NCBI RefSeq assembly: GCF_041260155.1
Contig: NC_091939.1
Coordinates: 23,835,744-23,899,743, forward strand
Source: Ptychodera flava
Taxonomy: Eukaryota
Direction of reading: 5' to 3'
DNA: 64,000 nucleotides
Shown here: positions 47,141 through 61,900 of the stretch, piece by piece
Numbering within the stretch: position 1 is the first letter of the stretch
Layout of the letters: each line of letters begins with the position of its first letter
The notes under the pieces: generated by a model
Told to the model about the DNA's origin: nothing
Seen by the model: only the letters and a program-made list of their open reading frames with translations
Databases searched by the model: none
Translations under genes and position numbers: made by a program

Positions 47141-47222
47141 ATGCTACACTGGAACATTATCATTCCAGTCTCCCTCTCTTTCCTGGGGACAAACCAACAT
47201 GCAAGCATCTACTCTCTTGTCG
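47141..47222 (+). CDS. Opsin-like GPCR candidate exon 1, encoding MLHWNIIIPVSLSFLGTNQHASIYSLV plus g (N-terminus and the start of TM1).
   Basis: The ATG is in aaagATGc context. The donor TCG|gtaaat is in phase 1, which matches the phase of the acceptor at 48223/48225. Splicing yields a continuous TM1 (ASIYSLVGTFSVLGNGFVILHYAI). The N-terminus is short and has no N-glycosylation site, so this exon or its start codon may be wrong. Confidence 0.4.
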
Positions 47223-48224
47223 GTAAATCAAAGCACTGCGACGGACACAGTTGAAGATTTGGTTTTGGGGGAAACAAAAGAAAACAAAATCGTCTCTGGT
47301 TACCTTCTGTTAGTATGTGAGTAAACATTCTTTTTTTTGTATGTGTTTCATATGCTGAAATTTACTGTGTGACGTGATGTTATGTTCTTGTACATTGACG
47401 GCCGAATCCAAGAGTTCGATTGGATGTGTCCAAATGTAGCAAATTAATCGGCAGTTCAATGTGCTCATTAACTTATCGTACTGTGATGCGCGTCGTTAAT
47501 AGCCCTCATAAAAAACAAGAATGCGCGAATACGTTTTGAATGAACAACCCGAAAAGATGCTGGAATATTGTGATATTATAAAAGACGTGCCCCATTGATG
47601 GCTCAAAGTCGCTATTTTCTGGCATGTGAAGGAGAATGAAGTATCTTTCCTTATAATTTCCGCGTGAGCGTCGAAATTTAACCTCGGTGTGCCCACAGTC
47701 CCTCTATGTGTGCCGTATATTTCGAGTAGATTTGCAACGCGTTAGAAATTAGTCATTTATGGCGCGCTGATACTACAGAAATTACAGCAATTTGCCGTCC
47801 AAACAGGATAAGGTCTTTTGACATTGCTCTGACATTTACATGAGCTTGTAACAAGAATCAGCGACTTCCAAGATTGTCTGAGACTGGCAGCTCCCGTCAT
47901 CATGGAAAATATCAAGGGCAGGATTTACCAGACTTGTATATCAATTGTACATTCACACTCCAAAATCCATTACACATCCCAAAAGTACCCTGAAACAGGG
48001 CTGTGTGTGAGATCTGTAACGAAGCGAGTTTTCATGAAGATGTAAGCTTACACGTTTTATGTAGCAATATGAATGAAAAATTATCAAGCTCGCACCGATT
48101 TTACCTTAAATTATGATTGGTTGAAATAATGTTTAAACATAGTGACTTCATGTGTTATTACAAGTTTCCGAACGTAAAAAATAATGCATGCATGTGCCTT
48201 ACATTGGTTTTGCCGTCTATGCAG

Positions 48225-48518
48225 GTACGTTCAGTGTGTTGGGGAACGGCTTTGTCATTCTGCACTACGCAATCGCTCGGCCGAAGGTGATCAAACCGAT
48301 CGAGAAATACATCGTCAACCTGGCCTTTTCTGACATCGGCGTGTCGGTGTTAGGGTATCCCATCGTCGCCCTCAGCAACCTCTTTAGTACCCGTCACAAG
48401 AGCACTTTCGTCTGCTTTTGGGACGGCTTCAGTGGTTTTGTGTTCGGCATCGTGAACATCTGGACGGTGACGGCCATTGCGTGCTCTACATACCTGGCGT
48501 TACGCAAGCCCGGATTTG
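48225..48518 (+). CDS. Opsin-like GPCR exon, encoding (G)TFSVLGNGFVILHYAI...NLAFSDIGVSVLGYPIV...VCFWDGFSGFVFG...IACSTYLALRKPGF plus g (TM1 to the end of TM3).
   Basis: Class A hallmarks are present: GN in TM1, NLAxxD in TM2 and the TM3 disulfide Cys. An in-frame stop at 48182 prevents upstream extension, so the acceptor ctatgcag|GT at 48223 is proposed. The donor is TTTG|gtaaga at 48518/48519, in phase 1. An alternative 5' end is Met 48188. Confidence 0.8.
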
Positions 48519-48785
48519 GTAAGATGAACTTTGAATTCTTGGCGAATAATGTACCGAAACATGAAGTATTACATCATGATTTTTGCCTTTTTGTACGTGT
48601 TTTACGTTTTCCCGAATATTTTCTGACTTTGGGGGTTCTGGGTAGATGTTTTCATGAGCAGTTCGGGTTTTTTGATGACTTCGTTCGGACCCCGTGTGCC
48701 ATGGAAGATTAATGTCTTATTGGAAAAAAGATGTAGAAACATGGGTTATTTATGTTTCAATTTAAATGATATGAACGAATAAATT

Positions 48786-48870
48786 GATGAATGAATGAAT
48801 GAATGAATGAATGAATGAATGAATGAATGAATGAATGAATGAATGAATGAATGAATGAATGAATGAATGA
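48786..48870. repeat. (GAAT)n microsatellite of about 21 units, in opsin intron 2.
   Basis: Read directly. It produces the fake FIHS-repeat ORFs 48746 and 48762 (-). Confidence 0.95.
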
Positions 48871-50384
48871 ACAAACGAAAGAACGAATACATATCTAAAA
48901 TTACGCCTGTCCAAAACCACATGCAAAACATAGCCCAGACAGAAGTCTATCAATTAAACGTAGACATACGGAAGCAGGAATAATATTGATTTGTTTTCTA
49001 TTTCTATTTCGGATCAATTGGTTTATAACTTTTCACGGCAAGTTATACCAAAATGTGTTATACCGAGCGAGGAAGAAATAGTTTGTAAATTTATCTATCG
49101 AAAGAGGTTTTCTGTTTATTTTTCTCCGCCGATTTTACTTTGTGATAAATATTTCCTGACATGTTTGATCCTCTGTGTGAAATTAAGGCAATACGCGCCT
49201 TTAGGCATCCATGGCTATACGACGACATCATTGCAATGTGTGGGAAGTGAGAGTTGAGAAGGAAAATATGGAAGAGGATACGGGTTCAGGCATTTTAGAC
49301 TAAATGTAAAATGCACAAGAGATAAGAGTTGTATCAGAAATCGTCGGGTAAGGATACTAGTACGTAAGAGGCATTCACAGATTTACAAGGTGACGAAATG
49401 TGGGCGGCTGCAAGTAAATGTCACGTGATTCGCGTAATTCGTGACTAATAAAACTGTGATGGAAGAACATGCGAACGTGACGAAGACGTCAATTCTTCAT
49501 TTTGAAAGAATAGAAGTTTTCGGGGCGAGGGGAGGGGGGGGGCGCTACTACCATAGCGTAATAAAACAACTGGACCCCCCCCCCCCCCAAGGATTGAGCT
49601 GATTTATAAATTGTTCAGTGGTGGGCGTCTCGTTTAGCCTTCCTGAATTTTAAAATCGTAGCATTCATTCAGAGCGCGGCGCTCATATTTTACGATTTGG
49701 AACCTAAAACTGCTTCGCGAAGGACTATTTGTTGACCTTTTTGCACGGTAAGCTGGACGTTTTAAAACCTGTGAGGGTGTCTTTGCACCTTAGGAGTAGA
49801 CATGATGACGAATGATAATCATATGTATGATGAATGTACACTTGAAGTACCTCGGTAACTTCGAAAATCGATCCGACGCGGTTTAGACACTGGGTCTCAA
49901 CAGGGGCAAATATATTCAGAAACGCATCACAGTTTTTACTTGTATTTTCAAAGTTGCTTGAAAATGATAAGACTATTCTATTTACGCTTTGTAAATATCT
50001 TAGTGTCTTCTGAAGTGCACTTTAAGCATTTAATTTTGTGTCAAGCTATAAGCATCTTCGCTTGTCTAGGTCTCTTGTCCGGGCAACTTGATGCTCCCCG
50101 GAAACAGAGACTGTAGTCGAACTAACGATCCGCGCGAGCGGACGATTCGGCTAACTCTTAAACGTAGGTCGCAAAACACTTGTGCTTGCCTATTAGCAAG
50201 ACTTATGGGTTACACAAGTTAAACTTCTTCCGCACGGATTCTATTTCTGCGCCATCAGAGTTGGCTGCAGCTTACAGAAATTAATCTCCAGGGCTTCCAG
50301 AGTTGATCGCTGGCAACGGTCTGAATACCCGCTGAAGTTGTTGATTCACTGCTATTTTCTCGTTGATATTAGTGATTGACGTCC

Positions 50385-52110
50385 ATTTAGGGAGCGTTCA
50401 GTTATTAGGGGGGGGGGCGGCAAATTCTTCCTGCGCATCAGTCAAAATAAGTGAACCCCCTACCAATTGTACCAAAAAATTGATGACCCCCCTTTTGAGA
50501 TGTCAAAAATTTCATGACCCCCCACATTGCTTGAGTAAAGCTGCACACACAAACACCTGGGGGGTATGGAGCGATAGAATCCAAACAAAAAGAGCTTAGA
50601 TTTTTTTAAATATTCCTTACAAACTCACAAGGTGTTAATGCTCAGATTTCCCCTTCTGACTTGCTATAATTTTGAAATTACCCTTCAAAGGGGTTGGACA
50701 CACACTACAGGTGGATTGCAATATTTTTGCGTAAGCATGTGTGTACAAAATTTTGATATTTGGATTTAATTGATAATTAGCTGTTGATAATGTTGATTCA
50801 CTATACATAGTAATCTATGAGAAAACTATGTAATACTTTTTCAATGCAAAACTATTTCTATGCATAGATATTTGATAATTTATATAAATGTACTAAATGA
50901 AATAGGGTAATACCGTTGTTACAACTGGCATGTGGACAAAAAGTTTGACTTTAGAATTTCACCAAAAATGTTCATCCACTATACATGGGAATCAATGATA
51001 AAATTGTGAATAATTTTTTTTCTAATGAAAAACTTGGTATACTTATGCATATACAGACGTTCAATAATTAAAATAATTGTACTTGATTAGAATATGATGC
51101 ATATTATGTGTATAAGAAATCTAGTTATGGAATTTCACTGAAAATGTTCATCCACTACACATGGGAGTCTATGAGGAAAGTATGAATAATTTTTTTCCAA
51201 TACAAAAATAGGTTAACCCGTGTATTTATGTACTCGATTATTGATATTAATGTACTTGATTAGATTAGGGTGGTAACAAATGGGTGTGTTCGCCAGAAAT
51301 TGGATTTTGGAATTATACTAAAATGTAGATTCACTGTACATGGGAGTCTATGAGGAAACTATGAATAATTTTTTTCCAATACAAAAATATCAAAATCTGT
51401 GTATTTGTAGACATTTGATAATTCGTTTTAAAGTACTTAGTTAGCCTAGGATGGTTAAAGGTTGATATGTGTGCAAGAAATCGGATTTTGGAATTTCACC
51501 GAAATGTTGATTCACTGTACATTGGAGTCTATGAGAAAACTAAGAATAATTTTTTACAATGCTAAACTAAATTAATTTGTGCTTTAATAGGTGTTTGATA
51601 ATTGGTCATACAAATGTACTTGATTCAAATAGGGTATTTGAAAGTTCAATGGATGAGGACAACATTTATGATATTGGAATTTCACCTAAAAGTATTTTTC
51701 ATGGTACTAGTAGTCTCAGTACAGGTAACTGTTAAATAATTTCCCTGGCAAAACTTGCTATACCTCTAATATGTAAGTAATAGGAATTGTTCATTGCCCT
51801 CAGTGAGCTCGATTTACAATAAGACTGGCCTCAGAGTTGCCTAGTCAAGATGTGACGGATAATTATACTTTTGTTCAGATTTACAGTTAAATGACTTCAG
51901 AGAATGAAATCATGCAGCGAATCATTTTTATCTCCCAGAATATTTCTGAACATTGAAACTGCTTTTTGACGGGATGTATACTTAGGAAAATTAAGTGACC
52001 CCCCCTCTGAGCTGTTTGAAAAATACATGACCCCCATTTGCAGTTTTCAAATTTGAGGTGACCCCCCTGGATTTTGCCGGCCTACCCCGGCCATAATAAC
52101 TGAACGCTCC
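50385..52110. mobile_element. TIR element of about 1.7 kb inside the opsin intron. It has about 40-bp TIRs (agggagcgttcagttattagg...) and subterminal GTGACCCCCC triplets, and encloses a 215-bp tandem satellite.
   Basis: 50388-50425 is the reverse complement of 52072-52110. The flanks are TA-rich, so a TA target-site duplication is possible. Confidence 0.55.
50740..51720. repeat. Tandem satellite with an about 215-bp unit in about 4.5 copies (ggaatttcac[ct]aaaaatgttcatccactatacatgg...).
   Basis: Consecutive units are spaced about 215 bp apart, for example at 50945, 51135, 51320 and 51495. Confidence 0.7.
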
Positions 52111-52777
52111 CTTATGTACACCAGTTCTGGACATCTGGTTAAGAATAGAAAATGTGAAATACATTCATAGCTTATTCACGATACTGTTTTCACACTTTAA
52201 AATTGAAAATTTGAAATTCCTATACGACAACTGACATGTCAACTATTTCACTAAAACACAGAATGGTAGAATGTTGAAAATTTAACTATATATAACCATA
52301 TATAACTAATAACTATATTTAACTATATATAACTATATATAATTATAACTATATAATTTATATTTCACCTTTTCGTTTTACCTTAATCTTTGTCTTTTCT
52401 CGGGGGCGGTTCACCCTGTTTTCGAAAGTTGGAATGGAAGGGGGAGGTTTCACTTTTTTATGTTTCGACAAAAAATTATTCAGCGGCCCCAAGGCCGAAG
52501 AACTGACCCGTCCCTTATGTCTGTCTGTATGTCAGTGTCTCTTCACATCTGTTATTGGTCTGCCTTTCCTCTCTTTCTGTCACGGTCTATCTCAGTCACT
52601 GTCGGCCTGTCTCTTTATCTCTGTCTCTCTCTCCATCTACATGTATCTATCTCTCTTGATTCGCACTTTTGGATGATACATACGCAGGGAGCCCAAAAGC
52701 AACTTATTTTGAAAGAAAACACATACTAAGAATATCAAAAATATTCATGTAGATTTTCCTTATCACTTTCCCTCTAG

Positions 52778-53529
52778 GTAAACGCTTCCAAACGGGGCTA
52801 GTTCTCGTTCTCATTTGGATTTTAGCCCTTCTGTGGAGCGCATTGCCAATGTTCGGGTTTGGTTCCTTCAGAGTAGAAATAAACGACCTCTTCTGCTCGT
52901 TAGACTGGAGTGGGCGACATCCGTTGAACGTCACCTACAACGCCGTCTCTGTAGTGATGTGCTACGTCGTACCGCTGACCTTGACAGTCACAGCTCACAC
53001 TCTGACGTACCGATATCTGGCAAAAGCACGCGCGGTCATCTATTTGGATGTCGATTTAGCCAGTGGTAGGGTGCAGGCAAAAAAGGAATCGACTGATATA
53101 GGTACGCCTAACGCACAACCACGCCCTTGCGTGCGTTCTGCCCGCAGGGCTACTCTCAAAAGTCACGAGAGGGCTATCAGGAAAGCCAGCATGGCCGTGT
53201 CTGCCGCGCTCTTCATCGCCTGGACGCCATACGCAGTGTTGGCAATATACACAAGCTTGGCCCGAGTGGTTAATTTTTCCTTTATTGGCGTTACCCTACC
53301 AGCTCTTTTCGCCAAGACAACATGTGCGGTGAACCCGATCACGTACCTCATCTTCGATCGCCAATTCCGTCTGCGAGCAGCGACCAAGACTTGTGCATAC
53401 ATCCTGACTTGGCGGAAACCACAGTCATCCAACGCAAAGACGAGCACAAGATCAGTTGTGAACGGCGTCATGTATCAATGTAGCGAGAGCGTCTTGAAAT
53501 ATCAACCGAGTGCTACAGCAGATAAGTGA
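52778..53529 (+). CDS. Opsin-like GPCR terminal exon (TM4-TM7 plus C-terminus), ending KTTCAVNPITYLIFDRQFR...SATADK followed by the stop codon.
   Basis: The acceptor cctctag|GT at 52776-77 joins the exon-2 g to give Gly-Lys-Arg. The translation carries the ECL2 Cys (DLFCSLDW), Glu at the E181-equivalent position, AWTPY in TM6 and FAKTTCAVNPITY with the retinal Schiff-base Lys in TM7. It aligns along its length with rhodopsin and melanopsin. The stop TGA is at 53527-29. Confidence 0.85.
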
Positions 53530-55221: not shown

Positions 55222-55530
55222 TTGCATATTTCATCACAATTTTAACAAATCTAAGTTGGGTTATCCCTAGGGACCTGTATACCAAATAACAAAGCTGTCT
55301 GACCAGTGGTTATGAAGAAGAAGATTTTTTACCAAAAACGCCTTTTTTGGTGCTAATTTGCCTATTTTCAACAATATCAAAAATTAATAAAAAGAGTTTC
55401 TCAAAATCATGTATTTTATCCACACAACAAATCTCAAATCAGTAACTACTGCAGTTCTCAAGATATTTGACGGACACCTCACAAACGGACATACATACAT
55501 ACATACATACATACATACATACTACATACA
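55222..55530 (+). repeat. SINE-like 280-bp unit plus (ACAT)10, immediately 5' of the LINE fragment.
   Basis: It is near-identical to 58507-58790 (ttgcatatttcatcacaattttaacaaatctaagttggg...ctcacaaacggacatacatac). Confidence 0.7.
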
Positions 55531-56216
55531 TACATTCCATAGCAGGCAGTAGCAATAATGCCACGGCTATCTGGCGTGTTTACAACAATTTGATCAATGT
55601 AAATAACTTTAAGGATCCTACATTTATATCGAATGGGGTTTGCTTTGAAAACCACTCTGAGATTGCTGACGCTTTCAATAAGCATTTTGTAGGTATCAGT
55701 CACTGTACTGATGATTCCAATGAACCTGTTAATCTGGAGTCATTACGTAAGTTTATAAATACGGTATTATGTGATGTACCGTCTTTCAGTTTTCCTTTAC
55801 TGAAGAATGATTTTGTTTGTAAATCTTTACAAGAAGCCAAATGCACGGGTATTGACAATGTTAACTGTAAGCTCTTAAGAATTGCTGCACCTGTAATTTC
55901 AGCTACTCTTACTTACCTTTTCAATAAGAGCTTGGATCATGCTATTTTCCCCAGAGTCTTTAAATGTGCTAGAGTTGTTCCCATTTACAAAGGGACTGGT
56001 AACATCAGTGATATGTCTAACTATCGTCCTATTTCAATTTTACCAGCTCTTTCGAAAATCATTGAAAGACATGTGTACAACTCTTTTTTTGAATATTTAT
56101 CTATGTTTAATCTTCTTTTCGATACTCAGTCTGGTTTTAGAAAGAACTACTCATGCCAAACAGCCCTAATCCGTTTAACAGATAAATTTTGTGTAATGTT
56201 GACAGTGGTTATTTGA
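55467..56216 (+). pseudogene. LINE reverse-transcriptase fragment (N-terminal RT domains); a disrupted ORF beginning inside a microsatellite.
   Basis: See the mobile element above. The first about 20 codons are a translation of (ATAC)n. Confidence 0.75.
55489..55535. repeat. (ACAT)n of about 10 units, at the LINE 5' junction.
   Basis: Read directly. Confidence 0.95.
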
Positions 56217-56328
56217 ATAGTGTACTCCTGCTTGATCTATCAAAGGCATTTGATCTTATAGATCATGAAATTTTGCTTGCTAAACTACATGTTTATGGGC
56301 TATCTGATGGAGTGATTAACTGGTTTAG

Positions 56329-57348
56329 ATGTTATCTCTCAAATCGTCACAGATTGTAGATTACATGGGTAGTAGATCGACTATTTGTCGTGTTACCACA
56401 GGTGTGCCGCAAGGGTCTATTTTAGGACCTTTACTTTTCATGATATTTATTAATGATATGACATTGTCTGTTGATTCCTCCACCCTCCACATGTATGCTG
56501 ATGATCAGACACTACTTACAAAGGGAAAGTGTATTAGTGAAGTCAATGATGCTGTAAATCGTGATATTTTACCAATTTCTAATTGGATAACCAATAATCA
56601 TATGCGTATAAACGCAAGGAAAACTAAGTGCATTTTGATAACTTCACCTTTTATGTTGGGTCATTTGAATAATTCCGATGTTTCATTGTCTATAGAGATA
56701 GCTGATACCAAGATCCCCAAAGTTATTTCAGGGGAGATTTTAGGTATATCTTTAGATGAAACCTTATCCTGGGATGTTCATATTGATAATTTATGCAAGA
56801 AATTGAGTATGCGCATTGGATTTTTACGTAAACTTCGTACTTACATTCCTTTTGATCAGCGGTTAGTACTGTACTATGGTCTATTCCAGAGTATTCTTGA
56901 TTATTGCTGTGTAGTTTGGGGAAACACAACAGTTAAGAATATTGATAAAGTGTTTATACTTCAGAAACGAGCTCTACGCACGCTTTTTGAACTTCCGTTT
57001 GATTTCCCTTCAGTGGATTTATTTTCATTACTTAATGTCATGTCTGTCAGACAAAGAATATTTTACTTCACCGCAATTGAAACATTTAAATGTTTGAAAG
57101 GGTATGGTCCACAGTATTTATCTGATTTGTTTACCGCTCAGAGTGATGTACATAGTCATCATACACGGTCTACTTCTCGCCAGGATTCTTATGTACCTAG
57201 ATGCTTCTCTAAATATGGTCAACGTAGCTTTCAATACCGTGCTGCCAAACTGTGGAATGCTTTACCAATTGAAATCAAACAAACTACTGTTCTGTACACC
57301 TTTAAATCTGACTTGAAAGATTATGTGAAAATGAATGTTCCTTTGTAG
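56329..57348 (+). pseudogene. LINE reverse-transcriptase fragment (RT domains 4-7 plus the C-terminal domain).
   Basis: GVPQGSILGPLLF and YADDQTL are present. It is in a different frame from the upstream part. Confidence 0.75.
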
Positions 57349-57433
57349 ATGTAATTATTGTTATTTTGCTTGAGCCCCGATGAAAATTACTGTACAAGTA
57401 ACTCGGCCGCTCAATAAAAGTGTAAATAATAAA

Positions 57434-57592
57434 TACATACATACATACATACATACATACATACATACATACATACATACATACATACATACATACATAC
57501 ATACATACATACATACATACATACATACATACATACATACATACATACATACATACATACATACATACATACATACATACATACATACATAC
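57434..57592. repeat. (ATAC)n microsatellite of about 40 units, at the LINE 3' end.
   Basis: Read directly. Confidence 0.95.
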
Positions 57593-58506
57593 TGACAGTG
57601 CACGCCGGACAGATACCCATCCCAATAGCTTCTATAGACTATATTAGTCTATAGTAGCTAATAAACGAGAGTTAATTACATTCTAATTAAAGTAAACAAG
57701 ACTTGCTTAAATCAAGATTTTCATCATAAAAAACAGCATATCTGTCAGGTTATAAAGAATCTTCAGCTGGTTATCTTTTTATCAGTATTTTCATCCTATT
57801 AACCAAGCACATTTTAACTTTCAAATTAACATAGTAAGTTCTGTTGAATAAGTTGAGACTGTACGTACTCAGAGAAAGCACACTGAAGAGACAAATGTTT
57901 GAAACGTAAGAAGTTCAAGGTCATCAAAAGCATCATGTAACACTTTTAATTGCACTGTTTACACAGATTGCATAATTGCTATAAATAGAACATGAGGAAT
58001 CTTACAGCCCAGCTTTACCATAAAAAATCCTATCACTTTGACCACTCTTTTAATTGATCACTCTATTTTTTTCCTCAAAGAGTAATTTTATTTTATCCTT
58101 ACCAAGTCAACCATGAATGGAAATTAGAACTTTCTCTATCTCTATTTATTTGACCACCCTATCATGACAAACTATTTTGAGCAATTTCTTTTAGATAACA
58201 TACAGGGCACAATAAATGACGGTTCAGAATATGTCAAAGTTGGGATTCAGGAAAGTTGCCTTTACATGTTTTAATCCTCCAAGGTGGTAAGCATTTCACT
58301 ATGAACTGTCAAAAAAAGTTGAACTTTCTGATAATTCTACACTAAAATTATTTTGGCTTTGATGATTTCCTAATTAATTCAATTATTTAAAATCATATTA
58401 ATTATTTTTTCTGGGTGAATTGATAGGGTTTATACAGTACAAGAATTACATACAATGTAAGTCAAATTTTGATCAAAAATGACAAAGCAAATTCCTTAAT
58501 ACACAT

Positions 58507-58920
58507 TTGCATATTTCATCACAATTTTAACAAATCTAAGTTGGGTTGTCCCTAGAGACCTGTATACCAAATAACAAAGCTGTCTGACCAGCGGTTATGA
58601 AGAAGAAGATTTTTTACCAAAAACGCCTTTTTTGGCATTAATTTGCCTATTTTCAACAATATCAAAAAATTAAAAAAAAAAAGTTTCTCAAAATCATATT
58701 TTACGTCTTCACAACAAATATCAAATCAGAAAGTACTGCGGTTCTCAAGATATTTGAGTGGACGGACGCCTCACAAACGGACATACATACATACATACAT
58801 ACATACATACATACATACATACATACATACATACATACATACATACATACATACATACAGACTGACGACGGACGCCGGACGGATACCCATCCAAATAGCT
58901 TCTATAGACTATAGTCTATA
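58507..58920 (+). repeat. Second copy of the SINE-like unit: 280-bp body, (ACAT)20 and a 65-bp tail shared with the LINE 3' end. This is the empty-site paralogue.
   Basis: The body is the same as 55222-55490. After the microsatellite, the tail gacgccggacggatacccatccaaatagcttctatagactatagtctatagtagcta matches 57595-57660. Confidence 0.7.
58782..58858. repeat. (ACAT)n of about 19 units, in the empty-site paralogue.
   Basis: Read directly. Confidence 0.95.
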
Positions 58921-61900
58921 GTAGCTAAAAATGATCGAGGTCATTTCCTATTTTGAAATTCGCCAATATCATAATCCTCAAAAAGTAAAATTTCACCCTC
59001 CTTAGTTTTCATTATTGTCATGTCTCTATTGTTCTGCCTTGCTGGTACTGATTCATATTCTAACATTTCAACGATTTCCGAGAAATTGGCTTCCTTCAAA
59101 GCAACATATCCCACGCAATTTCACTCGATTGAGACAAAAACAATAGAGGCGCCATAAAATACCAGCACAGGGGCAACAGCTCGTTTACTCATTTAAAAAC
59201 CCACCAAATACCTTTAACTTCTCATGGAGGAAATCTTCATACCTTCATGTCTAACTTTATCTTATTGAGCTAGCTATTAACATCGTTAAATTCATTCATG
59301 GCGTGGGTTTGAAACGATAGAATTGTGGCATGCCGCGTACTGGCAAGTACGTTTATAATTTTCAATTCTTCAACACATCGTCCATTCGTATCACAAACTA
59401 GTGGTAACAGTGGGTTTTAGGCACGGCCAAAGAGTTCCCCCTTTCACACTTGTTTTATTCTGTGATGCATTTTGGTAGTTTCTTCAGTATTTCAATATTG
59501 CTTATTGTACAATTTTCAACTTTGAAGAAATGTTTTATTCACATTCGTCTTTACCTTCTCCATCGCCCGTTTGTACCTTTGCTACCAGTTGTTACCCCGA
59601 AGAAGGCAACCAGTGGGTTGCCGAAATGGCGGTGTTTTATCAATAAAATTTTGAAGTTCGAACCTTCCGGTTGCAGTCTCATTTTTACCATACCTACTGT
59701 CACGGTGATTTCATTTCATTTTATTTGTTGCCTTTCTCCCAAATTTGAGATATGACACCTGATTTGGTTCTTGCTTCATACAAAAAGTATTGCATAAATT
59801 TTCCATGAGGAAAGTTTGAGAAAGAGTTTGTTTCGAGGGCTGCCAGCAAATTACAAAGTTGGTCAAAATATGTATTACTATACCTGGAGTCAACGCTTTG
59901 GTTAAATATACCAGTGCAAAAACAGGCCCCTCAACTAGCATAGAATTTTAACGTCGAAATATATGGCATAAAATGGAAACGGCGTTATCGAAACCAATTA
60001 AATGACTAAATACACGGAGGCAATTGAAAGCGCATCTTAAACGCCTTTCAGTTTGCTTCTAAGACTGCCTTTGATTATGAGACCATTTTAATGAGCGGTA
60101 CGCCAAACCAGTGCGACGTTGCGTTTGTCACTTCCACTGCACCCTTTTTGCTCGAAAATACTCCATGTGGGTACTATACGCTCCATCTAGCCCCGCGCAT
60201 ACAGCTGGTGGTGTATGCCTAGGGAGCTCAGGACCAGCAGTTGTCGTACAATGAACAAGAAAAGAAACAAAAAGTACGATTATTATTTGCACACTGTAAG
60301 ATTTAACATCCACAGACCTAGTTAAAACCTCCCCATGGTTTCGCTCAGTACGCCATAGTACTATCTGCACTTATACATATGACAAAACCCAATGGCGAGA
60401 TAGTGCAAATGCGACGTCCTCGAGATCTGTGCACCCTGGGTTCGCACGAGGGCTTGCGTAGTATCCTGTGGCCGTCCCCGCACGTACGTCGAGCGAGTAC
60501 GGCTAAATAATTATTATTCAGGTAAGTACCAATCGTTCTCATTGTTGCATGTTGAGATATTTCGTTAACTCATAGGAAATAACCAGAAAATAACAATGAA
60601 TGGCAAATACAATAATATTGCATTTGCCGATTGACAGGGGAGGGGACGGGGTAGAGACAATGTGTTCCACCATAGACCCTCGCGAAGGTCCATGGTTCCA
60701 CCCATGTTTCCCCACCCTAGCGGCAATTTCGCTATGTAGAGTACTAAATACATACGAGATAAAATGTCCTCCCCTTTTTCCTCTGGCGCTCGGATCGATT
60801 TAGATCACGCTCGAAAAAGGCATACTTTATATCGGCGTTTGTTTGTTTCGGAATAAAATTGTAAGGGACCGCATATCTAATTTGTTACCGTCTGTTATAA
60901 TTTATCAACATTCTAAAATATCAATCTCGATGTTACCACGAAATGTTTTCTGTAACAGGACTTTGCTCTATCACAATTCAGTGGCAGTACGTTTTCGACG
61001 ATTTCATAAGCCAATACGGTCTTTTTTGACAGGTGTTTTGATCGTTTCAGACTGTTTCCGTACTATTTTTTTGGACCGTTTATTGTTCGTTTTGGCTCGT
61101 TTGAACTTTACCAATTTATAGCCAATTAGAATTTTTTGGCACACGCTTTGCCATATAATACAAAATCTTTAGTTACTTAATTTTGTCGTCTGCTGGATTT
61201 CCGCAGCTATTCACTTCGGCTACACGTCACATTTAGTTTCTCCTTTTTGGGTACCTAAGCTGCAAACCCCTTACAGTGAAAGGAACAGCCATGATAGGAC
61301 ATTCGCTTTTTGGTGCAAATTGCTCCACATTGCATGAGTCGCTACCTGTCTGCCGTGGAGGCTATTGCTTGATAGAAACCATCGGAAGATTGAAAAAAAT
61401 CCTGAAAAATCTTCACATGCAAATGTCCGCAAATGATAACAAATCTCATCAAATATATTCCTTAAAACAGACGCACATAGTGACTGGACCAGTTCCTGCT
61501 TTTTCCCTTGTTTTAAATCTTCTTTGCATATTGTTGAGACTGGCAAATTTGTTTGGACAAATTTCGAGCTAGAACCAATAACATCTTCAGAACAAATGGT
61601 AAGGTGATAAATACCAGAGTTTGAGTGTTGTGAAAAAAATGTACAAGCATGCATGCATACTTACAGACAGACATCCAGACCAGCGACAATGACTGGTCCT
61701 TATAGCTCCAAATTCTATACATATATCTAGATAATGCCAGTTAAATAGACAACAAGCAACTTAAACATTTTAAGAAATATTTTATTTGGAAATAACAATT
61801 GCTTGAAAATGCAGATGTATGTACTTCTTCAGTAATATGACATAATCTATTTATAAAGATTGCATACTTTACAATTCTCTTGTAACAAGAACTATCTACA

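Follow-up and report, generated by a model that had tools for sequence, protein, structure and literature searches.

Among the G-protein-coupled receptors (GPCRs) of class A, the best-conserved residue is the arginine at position 3.50; it and Tyr5.58 make up the core of the activation switch. In rhodopsin these residues are Arg135 and Tyr223, which stabilize the active state and the G-protein interface, as established by mutagenesis. The closest described opsin without the arginine is Opn5L1, a photocyclic "reverse" member of the neuropsin (Opn5) family from non-mammalian vertebrates. Opn5L1 has VCC in place of DRY, is active in the dark, gains G protein activation on binding all-trans retinal and depends on Cys188, which forms an adduct with the retinal (PMC12579811). 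Here we describe an opsin gene of the acorn worm Ptychodera flava, located within a stretch of 64,000 nucleotides (contig NC_091939.1, positions 23,835,744 to 23,899,743; hereafter the window). We are highly confident that it is a divergent, enteropneust-restricted paralogue of the neuropsin/Opn5 family, as judged from sequence comparison. Both residues of the switch core are replaced in its product (P0001) and in the only close relative that we found, a 387-residue protein of Glandiceps talaboti annotated as "opsin-5-like" (P0002; about 37-39% identity).

The two proteins resemble the ambulacrarian neuropsins ("opsin 8" of sea urchins, starfish and hemichordates) in Glu181, Lys296, Tyr91, an AWTPY-type motif in transmembrane helix 6 (TM6), and introns at rhodopsin positions 48 and 145, both in phase 1. 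Canonical neuropsins are 27-33% identical to the pair. They differ from it in having Arg3.50 (xRY), Tyr5.58 and Thr188; their residue at 6.34 is small, and that at 113 is non-acidic (Tyr or another). Their genes also have three further introns that are missing from the P. flava gene, one of them the tetraopsin intron at rhodopsin position 252, which has been lost. Opn5L1 shares with the pair its family and the loss of Arg3.50 (as VCC or VCF). It has Cys188, Tyr5.58 and Tyr113, whereas the P. flava protein has Ser188, His5.58, Asp113 and Arg6.34; the VCC/VCF cluster among the listed matches of our searches likewise carries Cys188. RGR, retinochrome and peropsin are tetraopsins like the pair, with Glu181 (Asp in mouse peropsin) and Lys296. 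In the curated, named reference set that we used (supplementary file 1 of PMC6233551; ambulacrarian and standard references), they retain Arg135, with the exception of one starfish RGR with Lys. Retinochrome (Ile) and the starfish RGR (Leu) have lost Tyr5.58, as has the pair. In the RGR references NPxxY is degenerate (NAxxY and similar) and the chain stops soon after TM7, whereas the P. flava opsin has NPITY, helix 8 and a long tail.

The retinal site and the cytoplasmic switch

We numbered residues after bovine rhodopsin, using a HMMER alignment to 1f88 and a 194-sequence MAFFT alignment. The Pfam domain 7tm_1 covers residues 46-327 of the P. flava protein (E = 2.9e-32). In the Protein Data Bank, the best 31 matches are opsin chains without exception (E = 6e-20 to 5.5e-15); they outrank every non-opsin GPCR (best E = 6e-13). 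A preliminary description, made from the DNA letters alone, had called the gene an opsin-type GPCR, and this identification holds. The best matches are opsins and not GPCRs without the TM7 lysine: Lys296 is present in 143 of the 150 listed profile matches, the remainder having Pro or Arg or being fragments. Every motif quoted in that description (Lys296, Glu181, the cysteine pair, Asp113, AWTPY, DRQ and STY) was found in the sequence; most of the codons are located in Table 1.

The retinal-binding set is kept complete. It comprises Lys296 (within FAKTTCAVNPITY), Glu181 (within RVEINDLFC), Asp113 (within VCFWDG), Trp265, Tyr268 and the Cys110-Cys187 disulfide. Lys296 and Glu181 are present in both species, and we infer for Glu181 the role of ancestral counterion. 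The TM6 motif is AWTPY, NPxxY reads NPITY, and positions 310-312 read DRQ. Also retained are Phe8.50, Glu6.30, helix 8, the conserved tail cysteine and a C-terminal tail of 44 residues rich in Ser and Thr. Position 188 is Ser in both species, and position 91 is Tyr in the P. flava protein.

Asp113 is rare, occurring in 4% of the opsins compared. It is found in vertebrate opn6, which differs from the pair in having Arg181 and xRY, and in human OPN3, a c-type opsin with ERY. The resemblance to OPN3 extends along TM3, which is near-identical in the two proteins (CVWDGFSGSLFGIVSI in OPN3, CFWDGFSGFVFGIVNI in the P. flava opsin), while overall similarity to OPN3 is low (82-103 bits, vs 140-167 for a hemichordate neuropsin). 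The shared TM3 motif has either arisen by convergence or been kept from an ancestor.

At the cytoplasmic end of TM3, Glu134-Arg135-Tyr136 of rhodopsin is replaced by Ser-Thr-Tyr (within IACSTYLALRKP), so that Arg3.50 has become Thr, as the preliminary description had noticed; the Glandiceps protein also lacks the arginine and reads LSY. We compared the pair with the 191 other opsins in the alignment. Position 3.50 is Arg in 94% of these, Thr in P. flava and Ser in Glandiceps. Position 5.58 (Tyr223) is Tyr in 93% and His in both acorn worms. At 6.34 the others have Thr, Ala, Leu or Ser, with Arg or Lys in 3 of 191, and both acorn worms have Arg. The triple change (loss of Arg3.50, His5.58 and Arg6.34) was found in none of the 191 other opsins and is confined to the pair, in which Asn1.50, Asp2.50, Trp6.48, Tyr268 and Glu6.30 are retained. 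We regard the gene not as a new kind of opsin but as a neuropsin variant restricted to one lineage, in which the combination of switch substitutions is without precedent. Among the 150 listed matches, two other proteins lack Arg3.50 and keep Lys296, and these may be further independent DRY-less opsins (P0070, with ESY, Glu113 and Gln181; P0126, with ETC).

The Glandiceps orthologue and placement among opsins

We searched 5.8 billion protein clusters with a word-indexed method, using the protein and then a two-sequence profile, and 1.84 billion representatives exhaustively with HMMER. Beyond the Glandiceps protein, identity did not exceed 33%, and the profile score dropped from about 750 to 172 bits. 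We rejected one apparent third member of the clade (P0017, E = 6.6e-66). In this protein two vertebrate opn8-like opsins, each with xRY, are fused in tandem, and the scores of the two domains add up. No orthologue was detected in Saccoglossus or echinoderms in the cluster and representative searches.

The Glandiceps gene has three exons, and its introns fall in the same alignment columns and phases as those of the P. flava gene. In both species a diphthamide-synthesis gene lies head to head with the opsin. Because intron positions and phases and this neighbour are shared, we regard the two opsins as orthologous. The gene is therefore conserved between two acorn-worm families, Ptychoderidae and Spengelidae. 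The two proteins are 47% identical in the transmembrane helices and helix 8, with a maximum of 62% in TM3, and 20% identical in the loops and termini, a pattern that indicates a receptor under purifying selection. The rate of evolution is about 1.6 times that of canonical neuropsin over a comparable split (1.15 vs 0.70 substitutions per site). Each host also has a canonical neuropsin (Glandiceps, P0075; P. flava, Pflava_ops8). P0075 has TRY and Tyr113. Its gene probably lies on the same Glandiceps chromosome as that of the DRY-less opsin (OZ203282.1, locus L001), both being recorded on contigs of 23,477,501 bp, and such a location would agree with local duplication as the origin. The model published for Pflava_ops8 is chimeric, joining an acyl-CoA-oxidase-like protein, the neuropsin and a further C-terminal region.

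We placed the pair among the reference opsins using BLAST, group hidden Markov models (HMMs), intron positions and likelihood. In BLAST, both orthologues match the hemichordate neuropsin Sbra_ops8 best (140 and 167 bits). With the Glandiceps protein as query, the five neuropsin references fill the first five places. After the pair itself, 10 of the 15 best profile matches are neuropsin-type. The neuropsin HMM scored 280 bits for the Glandiceps protein and 212 bits for the P. flava protein, the best of all groups by 42 and 19 bits, respectively. It was followed by the HMMs of Go-opsins (238 and 193), r-opsins (226 and 163), c-opsins (206 and 178), peropsins (199 and 170), RGR (133 and 115), chaopsins (122 and 110) and bathyopsins (113 and 90). 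As controls, we left out one entire known neuropsin subfamily before building the neuropsin HMM; each left-out subfamily was still assigned to neuropsin, with margins of 32-100 bits.

The intron in the second intracellular loop (ICL2; position 145, phase 1) occurs in the same column and phase in a Diadema neuropsin, zebrafish opn9, an amphioxus opsin-5-like gene and a Patiria Go-opsin. Neither an amphioxus c-type opsin nor a Dreissena "peropsin" has it. The amphioxus c-type gene has introns at 121, 184, 232 and 312, and those at 121, 232 and 312 have no counterpart in the P. flava opsin. The TM1 intron (48, phase 1) is common to the Glandiceps orthologue, neuropsins, a Go-opsin and the amphioxus c-type opsin; it is widely shared and not diagnostic.

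For the likelihood placement, we used a Gonnet-derived rate matrix with four gamma categories (alpha 1.36) and optimized branch lengths. The backbone was a neighbour-joining tree of 60 labelled sequences in which every major group is monophyletic. The placement weight for neuropsin was about 1.00, of which 0.92 fell inside the clade and 0.08 on its stem, and support by resampling of estimated log-likelihoods (RELL) was 99.5%. The pair fits best as sister to the ambulacrarian "opsin 8" neuropsins (likelihood weight ratio 0.51) and next best as sister to vertebrate opn8 (0.29). Placement on the Opn5L1 branch was about 11.5 log-likelihood units worse than the best, and the loss of Arg3.50 is on this account independent of that in Opn5L1.

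BLAST, HMMs, introns and placement thus all put the pair inside or on the stem of neuropsin/Opn5, and the family is the best match by BLAST, HMM and placement. This does not agree with a new major opsin subgroup. The milder suggestion of the preliminary description, an under-described subgroup, stands in part: the clade has two members, carries automatic names only and is absent from the curated ambulacrarian set, and it is not a new major group. The orthologues are named differently in public annotation ("rhodopsin, G0-coupled-like" in P. flava, "opsin-5-like" in Glandiceps), and the former name is a misnomer. We did not rely on NCBI product names for classification; a Patiria "peropsin", for example, is a Go-opsin by its similarity to Sp_ops3. 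The gene is described neither in the curated ambulacrarian set (PMC6233551) nor in the literature that could be searched, which did not include the source of that set (D'Aniello 2015). The public record holds it under generic automatic names only.

Gene model and surroundings

The P. flava opsin gene lies on the + strand and comprises three exons, with canonical GT..AG splice sites throughout (47199-53529; Table 1). The product has 387 residues, not 375 as first described, and matches the automatic NCBI/UniRef model "rhodopsin, G0-coupled-like [Ptychodera flava]" from end to end at 100% identity. The start was initially given as 47141, but the frame of that ATG stops after 37 codons, and the first in-frame ATG is at 47199. 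The Ser-Thr-Tyr codons lie at least 25 nt inside exon 2 with conserved in-frame flanks, and the orthologue reads LSY there; alternative splicing is therefore unable to restore DRY. We also considered, and rejected, an overlooked small intron in ICL3, a loop that in P. flava exceeds its Glandiceps counterpart by 12 residues. The candidate GT sites at 53063, 53066 and 53102, paired with the AG at 53146-53147, give introns of 85, 82 and 46 nt, all out of frame, and exon 3 is unbroken both in the NCBI model and in the Glandiceps orthologue.

Table 1. Positions of the P. flava opsin gene, its key codons and neighbouring features in the window
Feature	Position	Strand	Content and basis
Diphthamide-synthesis gene (PF01866)	3474-42584	-	Collinear tblastx blocks against the annotated Glandiceps locus L001
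Coding exon 1	47199-47316	+	Met1 to first base of codon 40; N-terminus with NQS glycosylation sequon and start of TM1; spliced mapping, translation and identical NCBI model
Intron 1	47317-48224	+	GT..AG, phase 1, rhodopsin position 48
Coding exon 2	48225-48518	+	TM1 to start of ICL2; Cys110, Asp113, Ser-Thr-Tyr replacing E/DRY
Cys110	48413-48415	+	C103
TM3 segment compared with OPN3	48413-48460	+	
Asp113	48422-48424	+	D106
Glu134-Arg135-Tyr136 equivalent	48485-48493	+	S127-T128-Y129
Intron 2	48519-52777	+	GT..AG, phase 1, rhodopsin position 145, in ICL2
Microsatellite in intron 2	48783-48872		(GAAT)n, about 22 units
Transposon-like element in intron 2	50389-52112		1.7 kb between terminal inverted repeats
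Tandem copies within the element	50789-51700		Five copies of a unit of about 178 bp
Coding exon 3	52778-53529	+	ICL2 to stop; Glu181, Cys187, His5.58, Arg6.34, AWTPY, Lys296, NPITY, DRQ, helix 8, Ser/Thr-rich tail
Glu181	52876-52878	+	E171
Cys187	52894-52896	+	C177
His5.58 (H211)	52996-52998	+	
Arg6.34 (R272)	53179-53181	+	
Lys296	53314-53316	+	K317
NPxxY	53332-53346	+	NPITY
Stop codon	53527-53529	+	TGA
Degenerate non-LTR retrotransposon	55467-57348	+	Two adjoining open reading frames with reverse-transcriptase domain
Tetranucleotide microsatellite	57302-57625, 58643-58921		YIHT/CMYV repeats in translations

The diphthamide-synthesis gene matches Pfam Diphthamide_syn (E = 1.2e-76) on the concatenated tblastx blocks of the - strand of the window. 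It spans about 39 kb in at least 12 exon blocks, and its last mapped 5' block is about 4.6 kb from the opsin ATG. The Glandiceps gene pair fits into about 13 kb, with an intergenic gap of about 1.1 kb. The pair is far more compact in Glandiceps, from which we conclude that the P. flava locus has expanded several-fold through intron growth.

No second opsin or opsin paralogue was found in the 64-kb window, which has a G+C content of about 39% and is eukaryotic. Intron 2 contains a microsatellite and an element flanked by terminal inverted repeats of 33 nt with 85% complementarity (AGGGAGCGTTCAGTTATTAGG...). With its internal tandem copies, this element looks like a non-autonomous terminal-inverted-repeat transposon. 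About 2 kb downstream of the opsin, two adjoining open reading frames with a reverse-transcriptase domain (RVT_1, E = 2.6e-13, YADD) represent a degenerate retrotransposon without long terminal repeats (non-LTR). A tetranucleotide microsatellite lies in the first of these frames and just downstream.

Predicted function and alternative explanations

Most likely, the protein is a retinal pigment, since nothing is missing from its conserved retinal site; it is predicted to bind retinal and absorb light. Human OPN5 is made ultraviolet-sensitive by Lys91 (PMC12457702). In the P. flava protein, Glu181 and Asp113, with Tyr and not Lys at position 91, would give a protonated Schiff base. The second acidic residue at 113 and Tyr91 would probably place absorbance in the visible range. 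Arg135 and Tyr223 stabilize the active state in rhodopsin, and canonical activation should therefore be impaired where both are replaced. The cytoplasmic surface is nevertheless conserved, so the protein would be expected still to engage cytoplasmic partners, through a rewired interface. It would then act in the manner of Opn5L1, as an opsin that signals without DRY but with changed efficiency, choice of partner or activity in the dark, and unlike a standard bistable neuropsin or a signalling-dead photoisomerase of the RGR type. The Opn5L1 photocycle itself is impossible here, since position 188 is Ser and not Cys.

On balance, we lean slightly towards the whole explanation, namely a fast-evolving, light-sensitive enteropneust neuropsin with a rewired switch and DRY-less signalling of the Opn5L1 type. 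For the functional part by itself, a light-sensitive neuropsin derivative that would engage partners non-canonically through the rewired switch, we see just short of an even chance. A more specific scenario takes the triple change as a relocation of the G-protein-contacting arginine from TM3 to TM6, with rewired signalling (for example dark-active or reverse signalling, or another choice of partner), and takes Asp113 as gained independently of vertebrate visual pigments; this scenario is speculative, and we consider it doubtful.

Several points weigh against a neuropsin with rewired signalling. Both Arg3.50 and Tyr5.58 are lost, whereas Opn5L1 keeps Tyr5.58, and weak activation of G proteins by the canonical route is to be expected; Tyr5.58 is also missing from retinochrome and a starfish RGR. 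The likelihood placement relied on a Gonnet-derived model of our own making and a fixed neighbour-joining backbone, and the Go branch differs by only about 1.9 standard errors. In neighbour-joining trees (Kimura and scoredist distances), the pair is recovered in 100% of bootstraps, but its position receives at most 18%, on a long branch. The age of the clade is uncertain because no Saccoglossus orthologue was seen.

The preliminary description took the missing arginine as a sign of a photoisomerase-like protein. A signalling-dead retinal photoisomerase, or a retinal-binding protein for chromophore regeneration or storage like RGR and retinochrome, would account for the replacement, in both species, of two residues that make active-state and G-protein contacts in rhodopsin, alongside a fully conserved retinal pocket, and it has a parallel in the loss of Tyr5.58 from retinochrome and starfish RGR. 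The missing arginine is nonetheless a poor guide to such a function, since vertebrate RGR, squid retinochrome and the peropsins of the reference set keep Arg135. The best placement beats those with RGR, retinochrome or peropsin by 27-44 log-likelihood units, and the RGR HMM reaches less than half or little more than half as many bits as the neuropsin HMM. NPITY, Phe8.50, helix 8, Glu6.30, the tail cysteine and the long Ser/Thr-rich tail are all retained, whereas the RGR references, with their degenerate NPxxY, end early. The newly gained Arg6.34, beside Glu6.30, is conserved between the two species, which suggests a cytoplasmic face in use, and Opn5L1, the nearest DRY-less precedent and of the same family, activates G protein (PMC12579811). 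We therefore regard a photoisomerase as unlikely, though a serious contender. A relic or light-independent receptor, drifting towards loss or a retinal-free role under relaxed constraint, seems improbable to us. The long branch, with its 1.6-fold rate, the highly divergent loops and tail, and the lack of orthologues found in Saccoglossus and echinoderms are what such a receptor would leave. However, reading frames are intact and splice sites canonical in both species, and identity is more than twice as high in the helices as in the loops. Lys296, Glu181, Trp265, Tyr268, NPxxY, the disulfide, Asn1.50 and Asp2.50 are invariant between the species. The three switch changes fall at the same positions, with His5.58 and Arg6.34 identical, which indicates selection and not decay.

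The neuropsin assignment itself could be wrong if the pair belonged to the Go-opsins, or to a new major bilaterian lineage such as a hemichordate chaopsin or bathyopsin. The NCBI name of the P. flava protein, the second rank of the Go HMM, a scallop Go-opsin as second-best BLAST match of the P. flava protein, the ICL2 intron of a Go-opsin and the low neighbour-joining bootstraps are compatible with this, and the TM3 motif CxWDGFSGxxFGIV resembles that of human OPN3. The best non-neuropsin placement is indeed the Go branch, but it is 18.9 log-likelihood units worse than the best (standard error 9.8, z = 1.9) with a RELL support of 0.5%, which amounts to a weak rejection of membership in the Go-opsin clade. 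Placements with c-opsins, r-opsins, chaopsins and bathyopsins are 40-46 units worse (chaopsin 45.7; bathyopsin-containing branch 45.4). The chaopsin and bathyopsin HMMs score lowest of all groups, the c-type introns of the amphioxus gene are missing, and the less derived Glandiceps orthologue places neuropsins first. Membership of another opsin group is accordingly the least credible of these alternatives, and we consider it very improbable.

An opsin in which both switch residues are replaced, while the chromophore site, NPxxY and the tail are kept, is a natural experiment on the limits to which the switch can be rebuilt. It represents a second independent DRY-less lineage in the neuropsin family, after Opn5L1, a reverse photoreceptor that regenerates itself. 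Were the relocation of the arginine true, the Opn5 family would hold a second and mechanistically distinct solution to signalling without DRY. A signalling protein could have properties of interest in optogenetics; a silent one would mean that a photoisomerase-like protein had arisen outside the RGR/peropsin clade. The gene adds an unlisted opsin to the hemichordate repertoire, which is used in reconstructing the photoreceptors of the deuterostome ancestor.

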